A stretch of 4,580 nucleotides of DNA from a virus (lineage: Duplodnaviria > Heunggongvirae > Uroviricota > Caudoviricetes). A program made the translations under genes and the position numbers. The notes under the pieces are model-generated. The model saw only the letters and a list, made by a program, of their open reading frames with translations, was not told the origin of the DNA and searched no databases. Shown piece after piece: positions 177-4,580 of the stretch. Within the stretch, counting starts at the first letter, position 1. Each line of letters opens with the position of its first letter. The stretch lies in the IMG/VR virus record IMGVR_UViG_2681813263_000015, one strand, 5' to 3'.

Positions 177-1259
177 ATGAAAAAATTAACAGTGGCAATT
201 TCTGCTGTAGCTGCATCAGTACTGATGGCGATGTCTGCTCAGGCAGCTGAAATTTATAATAAAGACAGTAACAAGCTGGATCTGTACGGGAAAGTTAATG
301 CTAAGCACTACTTCTCCTCTAATGATGCAGATGATGGTGATACTACTTATGCCCGTCTTGGCTTCAAAGGTGAAACCCAAATCAACGATCAACTGACTGG
401 TTTCGGTCAGTGGGAATATGAATTCAAAGGCAACCGCGCTGAATCTCAAGGTTCCTCCAAAGATAAAACCCGTCTTGCCTTCGCTGGCCTGAAATTCGGT
501 GACTACGGCTCCATCGATTACGGCCGTAACTACGGTGTAGCATACGACATCGGTGCGTGGACTGACGTCCTGCCAGAATTCGGTGGTGACACTTGGACTC
601 AAACAGATGTGTTCATGACTGGTCGCACCACTGGTGTTGCAACTTATCGTAACAACGACTTCTTTGGTCTGGTTGATGGTCTGAACTTTGCTGCTCAGTA
701 TCAGGGTAAAAATGACCGCACTGACGTAACTGAAGCTAATGGTGATGGTTTCGGTTTCTCCACTACTTATGAGTATGAAGGATTCGGTGTAGGTGCAACC
801 TATGCTAAATCTGACCGCACTAATAATCAGGTTATCTACGGTAACAACAGCCTGAATGCATCTGGTCAAAATGCTGAAGTATGGGCAGCTGGTCTGAAAT
901 ATGATGCGAACAACATCTATCTGGCTACCACCTATTCTGAAACCCAGAACATGACTGTTTTTGGTAATAACCATATTGCCAACAAAGCACAAAACTTCGA
1001 AGTAGTTGCACAATATCAGTTCGACTTCGGTCTGCGTCCGTCCGTTGCTTACCTGCAATCTAAAGGAAAAGACTTGGGTGCGTGGGGTGATCAGGACCTG
1101 GTTGAATATATTGATGTAGGTGCAACCTATTACTTCAACAAAAATATGTCCACTTTTGTTGATTACAAAATCAACCTGATTGATAAGAGCGATTTCACGA
1201 AAGCATCTGGCGTTGCTACCGATGATATCGTTGCTGTAGGTATGGTTTACCAGTTCTAA
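177..1259 (+). CDS. nmpC: Outer membrane general porin, NmpC/OmpD family (360-aa precursor)
   Basis: The ORF track gives 117-1259; I place the start at ATG 177 ([29 protein letters not shown]), preceded by AAGGG 6 nt upstream. It has a classic Sec signal peptide with AQA-A cleavage motif, a Gly/Tyr/Asn/Asp-rich beta-barrel composition and the porin C-terminal signature ...VGMVYQF ending in Phe. The sequence is near-identical, from memory, to E. coli NmpC / Salmonella OmpD. Confidence 0.9.
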
Positions 1260-1476: not shown

Positions 1477-1621
1477 NNNNNNNNNNNNNNNNNNNNNNNN
1501 NNNNNNNNNNNNNNNNNNNNNNNNNNNNNNNNNNNNNNNNNNNNNNNNNNNNNNNNNNNNNNNNNNNNNNNNNNNNNNNNNNNNNNNNNNNNNNNNNNNN
1601 NNNNNNNNNNNNNNNNNNNNN
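1477..1621. other. Run of 145 N (masked or unresolved sequence) covering the 3' end of the Q gene
   Basis: Directly visible. The X residues in the 1461-1901 track ORF are translated N. Confidence 1.
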
Positions 1622-1886
1622 AATGCTTACCTGCCAGTGACATGAATGTCATACCGACTACATAATAATCTACTAATAAATCGTGCAAATCGCTGTTGTT
1701 CTTTTTCAGACGGGCCATGCACCCGCAAATAATCATCGCGTCATCGTCACAACATTGCGGGCGAGATTTTACTTTTGAAGTAATTAATCCCTTAAAACCG
1801 GCGGCAATGGACGACCAGGTCACATCTTCATGATTATTAGCCGCCCACGCTCCCCAACGCTCAAGAACCATCTGAATATCACGCAT
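1503..1886 (-). CDS. quuD: Phage late-gene antiterminator Q (Q82/QuuD type); 3' end masked
   Basis: 88 residues are readable: [88 protein letters not shown]. This matches my recollection of K-12 QuuD (YbcQ), including the Cys-rich region. The start is ATG at 1886 with GGAG 7 nt upstream; the track's TTG at 1901 is an over-extension. The end coordinate 1503 is inferred from a remembered length of about 127 aa and lies inside the N run; only 1622-1886 is actually observed. Confidence 0.7.
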
Positions 1887-1971
1887 CAACTTACTCCACA
1901 AAAATCAGACCAGAACGCCAATTACAAGCAAAAATCAACAAAACAGTATTAGTTGATTGTTATCTCTGACT

Positions 1972-2758: not shown

Positions 2759-2921
2759 GATTCCTCCTTGCTGCCAGTCGCAACCATTTTTTATCAACCA
2801 GGCTAGCGGTATATCCGAGCAGTGTTGGTATTTCGGATGGCTTCAGCTCAGGCTTACGCTTACGACGATTTGATACTCTGTAGATGTGCCCGTTCATGAC
2901 ACGAATAAGCGGTGTAGCCAT
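2751..2921 (-). CDS. ninE: NinE-like protein (56 aa)
   Basis: Hand translation gives [56 protein letters not shown], then TGA. Its ATG overlaps the ybcN stop (TAATG) and its 3' end overlaps the ybcO start by 8 nt. AGGAGG lies upstream. Position and length match DLP12 ninE. Not in the ORF track. Confidence 0.75.
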   Translation of the reverse strand: MATPLIRVMNGHIYRVSNRRKRKPELKPSEIPTLLGYTASLVDKKWLRLAARRNHG

Positions 2922-3376
2922 TACGCCTCCTGCTTATCGCGCAGCTGCTGGTATTCACAGCTCTGCGGAATTGTCAGGTGGCAGCCGATATTCATCGCCC
3001 AGGCTTCGACTTTGCACAGGAAGATGTACATCTCGCCGGTTTCCAGCTCTGACGTATGGCGGAGGGATTGGACGGTGGTGACCTCGCCGGACACGACATC
3101 TACACGGTCTTTGCTTTCGTAGCCGAGATAGGTGTGCTTCATCGCGTCTTTGACCCACTCAGGCGTAGCGAAGGTCTTGCCGCGGGCGATGAGATATTCG
3201 CTGATCTCCGTGTACCACATGTGGCTGAGCGCGTTCTGCGACAGGCTGCGCTTCTCGCGCCACGGCTTAACCTGCAGGCGTAAGCATTGCCCGGCATCCA
3301 GCAATGGCTGAATCTGCTGGCCGATGGCCGCGAAGTTACCGCGATGGAGTTTGATGCCGTCTACTGGCAGAGTCAT
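2921..3376 (-). CDS. ybcN: YbcN / NinB-family protein (151 aa)
   Basis: The full ORF MTLPVDGIKLHRGNF...EYQQLRDKQEA has GGGAGG 4 nt upstream of the ATG. It contains a KRSLSQN motif resembling the RSLDQN motif of lambda NinB (Orf-family recombination mediator). Matches K-12 YbcN from memory. Confidence 0.85.
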   Translation of the reverse strand: MTLPVDGIKLHRGNFAAIGQQIQPLLDAGQCLRLQVKPWREKRSLSQNALSHMWYTEISEYLIARGKTFATPEWVKDAMKHTYLGYESKDRVDVVSGEVTTVQSLRHTSELETGEMYIFLCKVEAWAMNIGCHLTIPQSCEYQQLRDKQEA

Positions 3377-3468
3377 ACGGCCTCCCTAACGGAAACCGCA
3401 GAATGCAGAAAATCGCAGGTGCATTTCTGCATCTGTGACAAGGTGATGAGTTCAGATTGTGGTCGCAT
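3373..3468 (-). CDS. Small ORF (31 aa), ylcH-like, translationally coupled to ybcN
   Basis: Hand translation gives MRPQSELITLSQMQKCTCDFLHSAVSVREAV, then TGA. The stop overlaps the ybcN ATG (ATGA) and AGGGGA lies 6 nt upstream of the ATG. It occupies the position of ylcH in K-12. Identity to ylcH is not verified, and a short ORF could arise by chance. Confidence 0.4.
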   Translation of the reverse strand: MRPQSELITLSQMQKCTCDFLHSAVSVREAV

Positions 3469-3487: not shown

Positions 3488-3560
3488 CAGAAGTCACCGG
3501 AGTTGTTCAGGCTCCGATGAGAGGATTATGGCGGATTGATTACGATAAATCAAAACTATC

Positions 3561-3604
3561 TTGAAGCCAAAACAGTGATCTTCGCTTTAAAAACCTTGTA
3601 TACT
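3561..3604 (+). promoter_or_regulatory. Candidate sigma70 promoter region for the AT-rich cassette
   Basis: A -10-like TATACT at 3599-3604 (immediately preceded by TG) lies about 36 nt upstream of ATG 3641. A -35-like TTGAAG at 3561-3566 is present but not at canonical spacing to that -10. AT-rich surroundings; weak call. Confidence 0.25.
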
Positions 3605-3640
3605 TTCACCTAATCACAGCCAGAACTATGGATCTAACCA

Positions 3641-4018
3641 ATGACCAACAAAGAAAACAAAGATAAATATATTAACAAGTTCAAGAAAGAGCTTTCAAAA
3701 TATATACAACCAACTGCTGGAGTGGACATTCAATTATTTAACTCTAAGGATGGTGGTGGTGTAATTAAAGCCACTTTGAATAGAAGTGGAAAAAGAAAAT
3801 CATCTATTGCTGGTAATTTTACTAAATTAGGTGAGGCAATTACCTCGAGTGGGCAGAGGGTTTTTGGTGGTGATCTATCAAATGTGAATTTTTACGGAAC
3901 AAATACGATTTTTGATGGAGATACAATATTTTTAATTAAATCACCTGATTCAGAGGAGTGGTCATCACAAAAAGCTTCCAAAGACGTAGAGGGCATCGTA
4001 TTTGGAGGGAAAAAATGA
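3641..4018 (+). CDS. Hypothetical small soluble protein (125 aa), Gly/Lys/Ser-rich, no recognised domain
   Basis: Clean ORF with an in-frame stop immediately upstream (TAA at 3635-3637): MTNKENKDKYINKFKKELSKYIQPTAGVDIQLFNSKDGGGVIKATLNRSGKRK...GIVFGGKK. There is no signal peptide or TM segment and only a weak SD (GGAT). Composition is AT-rich relative to the flanking phage genes. Its stop overlaps the start of the next gene. Confidence 0.6.
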   Translation: MTNKENKDKYINKFKKELSKYIQPTAGVDIQLFNSKDGGGVIKATLNRSGKRKSSIAGNFTKLGEAITSSGQRVFGGDLSNVNFYGTNTIFDGDTIFLIKSPDSEEWSSQKASKDVEGIVFGGKK

Positions 4019-4443
4019 TTAACATTACTACTAAGGATGGCACTCAAGTCAGTGGTGAAGTAAGAGATCTAGTAATTCTTCTTGAAACTGATGGAAAAAC
4101 GGTGTCTGATTATTTGCAGCCAATCCCTCCCAAAAAAGATACACACTGGAGCATGATTTTCATTCCGGTAGCAATTTATATACTACTTAATCTTGTATAC
4201 ATTATTGCTCACCCATTATTTCCTGAAAAATATCTAAAAACATCAACATCTATATTTCTATTCATTTCCTTCATATTAAGTGCAATAGTAGCATATTTTG
4301 TTTTCCATAAGCATAAATCTGCCACTCTATCCATATGCAGCTTAGTGTTCTTAGTGTTAATTGTAGGTGCTAACGTAGGGTTTATCAGTTACAGCGACCT
4401 AACACAAAAAGCGACGCAAAAATTAGATAGTTTGTCTAAATAA
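4015..4443 (+). CDS. Hypothetical small membrane protein (142 aa): soluble N-terminal region of about 45 aa plus three predicted TM helices
   Basis: The track ORF is 3958-4443; I place the start at ATG 4015 (MINITTKDGTQVSGEV...), preceded by GGAGGG at 4005-4010 and overlapping the upstream stop (ATGA). Hydrophobic stretches at about residues 46-67, 78-98 and 104-125 are separated by short charged loops (EKYLK, HKHK). KK before TM1 suggests an N-in topology. Confidence 0.65.
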   Translation: MINITTKDGTQVSGEVRDLVILLETDGKTVSDYLQPIPPKKDTHWSMIFIPVAIYILLNLVYIIAHPLFPEKYLKTSTSIFLFISFILSAIVAYFVFHKHKSATLSICSLVFLVLIVGANVGFISYSDLTQKATQKLDSLSK

Positions 4444-4450
4444 TTATGTT

Positions 4451-4471
4451 GCCATGCGAAGTATGCATGGC
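4451..4471 (+). terminator. Stem-loop downstream of the cassette (possible weak terminator)
   Basis: GCCATGC-gaagtat-GCATGGC is a perfect 7-bp stem starting 8 nt after the stop codon. The following sequence (TGCATGTCTGCCTTCCATTT) is only moderately U-rich, so this is not a canonical intrinsic terminator. Confidence 0.3.
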
Positions 4472-4580
4472 TGCATGTCTGCCTTCCATTTAAAATGGGC
4501 TAAGACCTATAACCCTAAATATTATTCTTTATTATCTTCTTTACCACTTCGGTGATGCTGCCAACTTACTGATTTAGTGT

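Follow-up and report, generated by a model that had tools for sequence, protein, structure and literature searches.

A two-gene cassette of lambdoid prophages belongs to a widespread pair of soluble and membrane proteins and may form an anti-phage module

Background

The RexAB system of phage lambda, which is encoded in the immunity region and co-transcribed with cI, consists of RexA with 279 amino acids (aa) and RexB with 144 aa and four transmembrane (TM) helices, and with gp30 and gp31 the prophage of mycobacteriophage Butters encodes a soluble partner and a multi-pass membrane partner, of unknown fold, which defend against heterotypic phages. Besides these pairs, PrrC, a single anticodon nuclease, resides in the EcoprrI type I restriction-modification (R-M) locus. 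Here we analyse a stretch of 4,580 nt from a tailed phage of the Caudoviricetes (IMG/VR record IMGVR_UViG_2681813263_000015), called the window in the following, which carries a cassette of two overlapping genes, A and B. Judging from homology searches and gene order, this cassette is a branch of a widespread conserved gene pair and not an enterobacterial oddity, a point that was missed by the first-pass annotation of the window; we rate it as a prophage- and island-borne accessory or defence module with a membrane component, which would come from two undescribed protein families.

Like RexAB, the cassette is encoded by a prophage, is presumably expressed in the lysogen, and combines one cytoplasmic protein with one small polytopic inner-membrane protein (142 aa for B, 144 aa for RexB), and the logic of a sensor and a membrane effector that we propose would also be shared. 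However, A has 125 aa compared with the 279 aa of RexA, B has three predicted TM helices and RexB has four, and the cassette lies antisense between replication gene P and the nin region, far from the repressor gene, while the pair is also found far outside phages and Enterobacteria. No Rex family was seen for A or B, either among the Pfam matches, which were reported at E up to 1 with membership judged by the curated cut-off of each family, or in PADLOC-DB, for which version v2.0.0 was used. With PrrC the pair shares its placement, since in two loci it stands inside or after an R-M operon (mod-A-B-res and hsdM-hsdS-A-B), but A-B consists of two proteins with a membrane component and without a nuclease domain, and most of its copies are away from R-M genes. 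The Butters pair differs in host phylum and in the size and topology of the membrane partner, and homology with it is not expected. As to the other cargo of the same lambdoid slot, in DLP12, HK639 and phi80, the position is the same while the proteins are unrelated, and A-B alone is antisense and followed by a terminator-like hairpin of its own.

Results

A gene pair conserved across phyla

Word-indexed homology searches with A and B return enterobacterial relatives only. An exhaustive hidden Markov model (HMM) search with the A alignment yields 111 clusters (at 50% identity) with E below 1e-3, whose members are nearly all 120-135 aa long and are matched over their full length. The family has the consensus YINNFRR...GGAxxEF...AFGGNLxGFxFxGTNxIxExxRIxLIKD...EW...A..DV, where Y10, G39, F84, G86, T87, K100, W107 and D115 are near-invariant. 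The homologues of A that could be placed on contigs come from four metagenome sets and from 23 genomes of at least ten phyla. In 22 intact loci, which cover at least 10 phyla, a B-like protein is encoded directly after the A homologue and on the same strand, with a 4-nt overlap of the two genes in most loci; the exceptions to this pairing are frameshifted copies or contig ends. Such loci are found for example in Nitrospira, Nitrosomonas, Neptuniibacter, Synechococcus, Deltaproteobacteria, Acidobacteria, Myxococcales, Saganbacteria, Bacteroides and Flavobacterium, besides others, and their A homologues are 28-35% identical to A of the window.

The B-like partners are 117-154 aa long and keep a fixed layout: a soluble N-terminal part with the pattern K.G..EG..EE.+.l...G.....Y, a Trp before TM1, three TM helices, a basic loop of the RFK type behind TM2, and a short helix at the C-terminus. 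In B of the window, the near-invariant residues are K7, G14, G27, Y33 and K101. Pairwise BLAST between B of the window and a distant partner is not significant. The profile-profile comparison of the two B groups (hhalign) gives a probability of 85.6% and E of 5.6e-6 over 108 columns, and on the basis of this score together with the strict synteny we accept the two groups as homologous. Moreover, all-against-all BLAST of the 211 open reading frames (ORFs) neighbouring the pair reveals no conserved third gene, and in 21 of 25 loci the pair has a lower G+C content than the sequence on either side (8 points on average).

One predicted member of the family, P0104 (447 aa), has the A domain at residues 7-119 fused to an HNH endonuclease at 191-231 (Pfam E 1.3e-12), followed by a C-terminal region of about 200 aa without annotation. 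If this fusion is genuine, A may be a sensing or regulatory domain which can be coupled to various effectors. Three further homologues (P0116, P0132 and P0136) are extended at the N-terminus by 85-110 aa, for which Pfam gives no match.

The two genes and their composition

In the window, gene A (3641-4018, plus strand) encodes a soluble and basic protein of 125 aa (isoelectric point, pI, 9.5), which counts 17 K, 15 G and 13 S among its 125 residues and has no hydrophobic segment, and gene B (4015-4443, plus strand) encodes 142 aa with three TM helices, the hydrophobic segments being at about 43-70, 74-100 and 100-129 on the Kyte-Doolittle scale. Composition and hydropathy hence agree with the first-pass annotation, which had described a Gly/Lys/Ser-rich soluble protein and a protein of three TM helices, and the ORF coordinates and the ATGA overlap bear out its view of an overlapping plus-strand pair diverging from the minus-strand nin block. 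From this overlap and from the ribosome-binding site GGAGG, located 6-7 nt before the B ATG, B is predicted to be translationally coupled to A. The N-terminal soluble part of B has about 40 aa and is acidic (pI 4.7), the basic loop after TM2 is conserved (HKHK in the window, RFK in distant relatives), and the protein has a short C-terminal helix; its AlphaFold model, of low confidence, consists of a small beta-hairpin and a helix, then three long helices. The topology is predicted to be N-in/C-out, as the positive-inside rule (KK before TM1 and HKHK after TM2) would place the N-terminus of B in the cytoplasm.

The G+C content is 34.1% for A and 33.6% for B, compared with 52.3% for rusA, 51.7% for ybcO and 57.7% for ybcN, and at third codon positions it is 26-28% for the cassette genes and 58-76% for their nin neighbours. 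In this respect the claim that the cassette, at about 34%, is sharply lower in G+C than its neighbours at 52-58%, and hence compositionally foreign, is supported. Compared with the Klebsiella and Enterobacter variants, which have 66-76% protein identity and saturated synonymous sites, the ratio of nonsynonymous to synonymous substitution (dN/dS) is 0.08-0.13 for both genes. With dN/dS about 0.1, A and B are under strong purifying selection, and this low ratio, the full-length matches to PHROG families and the homologues across phyla together argue that both are real genes and not chance ORFs. All enterobacterial variants of the cassette, including those of loci L040 and L046 (7001-7803), keep 33-34% G+C. 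As the content stays low despite saturated synonymous sites, it seems to be maintained rather than to be the fading trace of a recent import, and control dependent on H-NS is one possibility for the reason.

The cassette as mobile cargo of lambdoid prophages

The homology of the window to the lambdoid phages HK639, phi80 and CobraSix ends at about 3554-3562, and from this stop the left edge of the foreign segment is placed at about 3556-3563. Beyond gene B, the 107 nt at 4444-4550, which include the last 29 nt of P, are found only in 46 cassette-bearing E. coli genomes, so that the segment reaches at least to the IS1 end at 4551. The borders drawn in the first-pass annotation, 3535-4471, should therefore be revised on both sides.

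At 99% identity or more, the cassette is present in 46 of 5,426 complete E. coli genomes, the uropathogenic strains 536 and F11 among them. In all 46 it lies between replication gene P and ylcH/ybcN, and its genes are annotated as 'hypothetical' (WP_000182282.1 and WP_000608370.1). The same interval, delimited by the replication genes and by ylcH/ybcN or ninB, contains emrE, ylcJ, ybcK, ybcL and ybcM in K-12 DLP12; that of HK639 contains genes like ren, eae and holE, and that of phi80 a gene like N15 gp45. The unrelated K-12 cargo upstream of ylcH-ybcN, which the first-pass annotation had given as ybcL/ybcM, is thus confirmed as emrE/ybcK/ybcL/ybcM, and the comparison of the same position, proposed earlier for deciding whether the slot holds variable cargo, shows unrelated genes in all three prophages and phages. 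The cargo of DLP12, HK639 and phi80 is co-oriented with the nin genes, whereas the A-B cassette is antisense. Moreover, divergent copies of the cassette occupy the same place with the same antisense orientation in prophages of Klebsiella and Enterobacter, where the replication modules (O/P, DnaB-type or DnaC-type) and the nin modules (NinB or DUF1367) differ. The cassette hence moves as a unit among mosaic phages. Altogether, on the evidence of gene order and homology, the cassette appears as a horizontally mobile branch of the widespread module, which lambdoid prophages carry as an antisense 'moron' with the replication genes on one side and the nin region on the other.

Among IMG/VR viral contigs, 18 carry the cassette. 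Searches by tblastn with A, B and the distant homologue P0140 give no match in 50,697 deposited phage genomes, and those with A and P0140 give none in 72,556 plasmids. One fragment of protein A with the label Shigella sonnei has 100% identity to the protein of the window. In E. coli CV839-06 (L002, 6242-7821), an IS1 interrupts gene A after codon 49 or so and leaves gene B intact, an arrangement that bears on whether A must keep B harmless. Another predicted protein, P0013 (127 aa), combines pentapeptide-repeat Pfam matches with a final stretch of 50 residues in 100% agreement with the C-terminus of A; its contig measures 1.1 kb, and a frameshift or a chimera in the gene call probably accounts for it.

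Genomic company of the pair

The neighbours of the pair vary with the locus, and some of them are of defence type. In Bacteroides sp. UMGS1534 (L035, 13-9919), an SNF2 helicase gene, two genes of 220 and 231 aa, a type III Mod gene, A, B and a type III Res gene follow each other closely on one strand, with A 37 nt beyond Mod and Res 93 nt beyond B. The A-B pair of this locus is embedded inside a type III R-M operon, and, as argued in the preprint of Payne et al. (10.1101/2024.01.29.577857), even a single embedded instance already warrants suspecting defence. A homologue of this SNF2 helicase is located 2 kb downstream of the pair in Nitrospira (L017). In another locus (L027, 2068-6734), a HigBA-like pair (Gp49/HTH) and the type I genes hsdM and hsdS precede A-B on the same strand, and no hsdR is seen within this locus. 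Toxin-antitoxin (TA) genes also recur, for example BrnA and Gp49/HTH together with GNAT and Hypoth_Ymh around the pair of L011, and an Xre-MbcA antitoxin gene in an island after ligA (L003). Prophages are the setting of every enterobacterial copy and also of the loci L006, L007 and L047, in which the lysis and terminase genes lie downstream of the pair. In one of the enterobacterial slots (L046, 4665-6348), a colicin-like pore former of 377 aa and a colicin-immunity-like gene adjoin the cassette, with a DndB-like gene on its other side. By guilt of association, such company suggests an anti-phage role for the pair.

Signals around the genes

The leader of the cassette (3556-3640, plus strand) starts where the homology to lambdoid phages stops. 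Within it we infer a weak sigma-70-like promoter at 3575-3604 on the plus strand (-35 GTGATC at 3575-3580, an 18-nt spacer, and -10 TATACT at 3599-3604), about 37 nt before the start of A, and a weak GGA Shine-Dalgarno sequence is located on the same strand about 10 nt before the A ATG. When aligned, the Klebsiella and Enterobacter variants keep a TGGA(A)TC motif and the -10-like element at matching positions. The candidate at 3575-3604 is not listed by the consensus promoter scan, since its -35 agrees at only 3 of 6 positions.

Directly after the stop of gene B, a G+C-rich hairpin GCCATGC-N7-GCATGGC (4451-4471, with no strand assigned) is kept in all enterobacterial variants of the alignment with a variable loop, and its fold z-scores are -3.4 and -2.7. 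The hairpin of the Klebsiella locus L040 (7804-7839) has a 15-bp stem with z = -6 to -7.5, followed by UUUAUUUU on the minus strand. Because a U-run is found there on the minus strand only, the hairpin seems to be aimed at the converging early-right operon of the phage, and that of the window looks like a terminator or insulator between this operon and the cassette. A second, terminator-like stem-loop with a T run, detected by consensus scan and folding, lies on the minus strand at 4497-4515, just past the stop of gene P in a position like that of tR2. Both stem-loops would halt antisense early-right transcription into the cassette, unless it is antiterminated.

Searches of databases and structures

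Neither protein had been recognised in the first-pass annotation, and Pfam, NCBIfam, PADLOC, the PDB and the literature likewise name neither. A and B have nothing above cut-off in Pfam, NCBIfam and PADLOC-DB, and even at E up to 1 no Pfam family at all matches A, while the sub-threshold matches of B to hydrophobic families such as 7TMR-DISM and Yip1 were rejected as compositional. Among 73 homologues from the wide A family, nothing exceeds the Pfam cut-off, no PDB sequence is matched, and PADLOC-DB gives only scattered matches of single members (best E 0.002); nor does any Pfam family match 10 distant homologues of B above threshold. The PDB search with A returned Spc97 (E 0.023) and FtsA (E 0.14), both rejected as chance, and sequence and profile searches of the PDB with B returned no match. 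The structure prediction that had been proposed did yield AlphaFold models (pLDDT 58 and 68, from shallow alignments), of low confidence, and the fold searches made with them gave no informative match.

In the PHROG collection, A matches phrog_18061 (E 9.3e-85, residues 1-125 of 125) and B matches phrog_16940 (E 2.3e-96, residues 1-142 of 142). These HMMs are labelled function-unknown and cover the enterobacterial branch only, with neither the pairing nor the wide family recorded, and they are all that was found when we looked for a match to well-characterised families, which the first-pass annotation had held to speak against its reading. There is no Pfam or PHROG match of A or B to SieB, Imm or other exclusion families, and no Pfam or NCBIfam domain corresponding to a recognisable antitoxin DNA-binding fold or a known toxin family. 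A class I holin, which also has three TM helices, was considered for B and rejected, since no holin of Pfam or PHROG matches it; in the related prophage the lysis genes essD/rrrD/rzpD stand apart from the cassette, which itself has an antisense orientation within the early region. Searches of the literature by accession, locus tag and PHROG number found no paper on the A or B proteins, and searches by topic found no description of the pair; HepS of Gifsy-1 (PMC13043305), considered on the way, is an unrelated HEPN protein.

The prophage setting of the window

The window is a piece of a DLP12-like lambdoid prophage, with the nin genes on the minus strand and the cassette on the plus strand. The first gene of the nin block is a ylcH-like ORF of 32 aa (3370-3468, minus strand), which forms the left border of the cargo slot; a hypothetical coding sequence of 32 aa is annotated at the equivalent place in E. 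coli 536, and K-12 has ylcH there too. The other nin genes, all on the minus strand, are ybcN (2921-3376), then ninE and ybcO between ybcN and rusA, rusA itself (2109-2471), and ylcG between rusA and quuD. The Q antiterminator gene quuD (1518-1901, minus strand) is partly masked by N: of two such runs, at 1314-1346 and 1477-1621, the second spans its 3' part and the spacer towards the porin gene. This ompC/nmpC-like porin gene (177-1259, plus strand) is intact and occupies the moron position between Q and the lysis genes; its counterpart nmpC in K-12 DLP12 is broken by IS5.

On the right, the border of the slot is what remains of replication gene P, its last 29 nt (4522-4550, minus strand); the 46 E. 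coli genomes label the equivalent region replication protein P, and IS1 cuts the gene of the window at 4550/4551. The two ends of the window, 1-30 and 4551-4580, read as IS1 termini, and the related locus L002 has an annotated IS1A element. With such termini at both ends, the window would represent a prophage remnant bounded by IS1, in which P is truncated. The Rfam scan of the window finds no RNA family.

Discussion

Considering the above results, we tentatively favour the reading that the A-B cassette is a self-contained two-gene anti-phage module of the abortive-infection or exclusion type, in which A would sense or regulate and B would be the membrane effector. For this defence reading we count the conservation of the pair across phyla, the lack of a conserved third gene, and the R-M, TA and prophage contexts, and moreover the HNH fusion, the patchy spread over phyla, the low G+C content relative to the flanks, the variable slot with its colicin-like pore former and immunity gene in L046, and dN/dS about 0.1. 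With somewhat more reserve, we think it conceivable that the pair is the founding example of an undescribed two-component anti-phage system in at least 10 phyla, in which a new A sensor domain, fusable to HNH, controls a new three-helix effector, and which travels in prophage slots and R-M operons.

A possible mechanism may be outlined as follows. The cassette would be transcribed in the lysogen from its own promoter, as the promoter candidate and the insulating terminator hairpin make expression there possible. B would insert into the inner membrane with three TM helices and its N-terminus in the cytoplasm, and A, joined to it by translational coupling, would stay in the cytoplasm and act, probably, on the cytoplasmic N-domain of B and on the basic loop between TM2 and TM3. 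The basic nature of A and the acidic cytoplasmic N-part of B give a weak hint of such a contact. A cue from an infecting phage might then switch B into an active state, which would lead to permeabilisation or depolarisation, or to a block at the membrane.

Several points weigh against this defence reading. Neither A nor B has homology to a known defence protein in PADLOC-DB, the AlphaFold models are of low confidence with no informative fold match, and the HNH fusion is a single predicted protein, known from its protein sequence alone. Most neighbourhoods of the distant homologues are housekeeping, and defence-type neighbours are seen in about 4-5 of 24 loci, a count given without background or enrichment statistic. 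As the cassette was found in none of the 50,697 deposited phages and 72,556 plasmids, its mobility is known only from prophages and islands. Moreover its promoter is weak by consensus, and AT-rich DNA is a frequent target of H-NS silencing in E. coli, so that expression in the lysogen is not assured.

The pair might otherwise be a TA or addiction module, with B as a membrane toxin and A as its antitoxin, which stabilises the carrier prophage or island, any phage defence being secondary. Indeed, a small upstream gene overlapping the downstream gene is the arrangement of type II TA systems, and the ATGA overlap of A and B reproduces this classic layout; furthermore the pair has TA genes for neighbours in L011 and L027, it moves as a self-contained unit, and it is intact inside a heavily decayed prophage remnant bounded by IS1. 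However, neither a DNA-binding nor a known antitoxin domain is seen in A, and no toxin family that is known matches B; the broken A beside an intact B in CV839-06 should be hard to tolerate, though IS1 polarity may silence B there; and the HNH fusion, in which one chain carries both the A domain and a nuclease, is more easily reconciled with a sensor than with the antitoxin of a membrane toxin. On balance we consider an addiction module rather unlikely. More doubtful still is a non-lethal superinfection exclusion, where B would block incoming phage DNA at the inner membrane, as Imm and SieA do, and A would be an assembly factor or regulator. Prophage exclusion proteins are commonly small membrane proteins, and a small inner-membrane protein from an antisense prophage moron would suit this role. 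Against it stand the missing Pfam or PHROG match to the exclusion families, and also the strictly conserved cytoplasmic partner and the R-M operon loci outside prophages, which are more typical of intracellular sensing; to our knowledge no exclusion protein has such a two-part design.

An accessory role other than defence has also to be weighed, either in host physiology, such as ion or small-molecule flux, envelope stress or colonisation, or in the phage cycle, such as lysis timing or replication control. The mostly housekeeping neighbours of the distant homologues and the failure to find defence homology speak for it, as do morons for host fitness in the same prophage, namely the ompC/nmpC-like porin of the window and iss in the prophage of E. 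coli 536 (L001). Nonetheless, the patchy distribution across phyla, the consistently foreign G+C content, the embedding in R-M operons and the prophage cargo slots stand against such a role, and we hold it improbable, about to the same degree as the addiction module. Within it, a part in the phage's own cycle is unlikely, because the pair also exists in non-phage loci, runs against the early operon, and is absent from the 50,697 deposited phages and from the lambdoid phages compared. The anti-phage module, with A as sensor and B as membrane effector, is thus the reading that we retain, with the tentativeness stated above.

Conclusions

If the pair is a defence system, it would add a module of about 0.8 kb and two new protein families to the bacterial immune repertoire, and the lambdoid position between P and the nin region would be a further site of defence cargo alongside the P2/P4 hotspots. 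Its carriers include uropathogenic E. coli (536 and F11), Klebsiella, Enterobacter and probably Shigella, besides environmental and gut phyla, and a defence role would thus be relevant to phage therapy against Klebsiella and E. coli. Even if the role is not defence, functional work would have a clearly delimited target here, namely a soluble protein and a three-helix membrane protein which lack a Pfam entry and are strictly kept together over many phyla.

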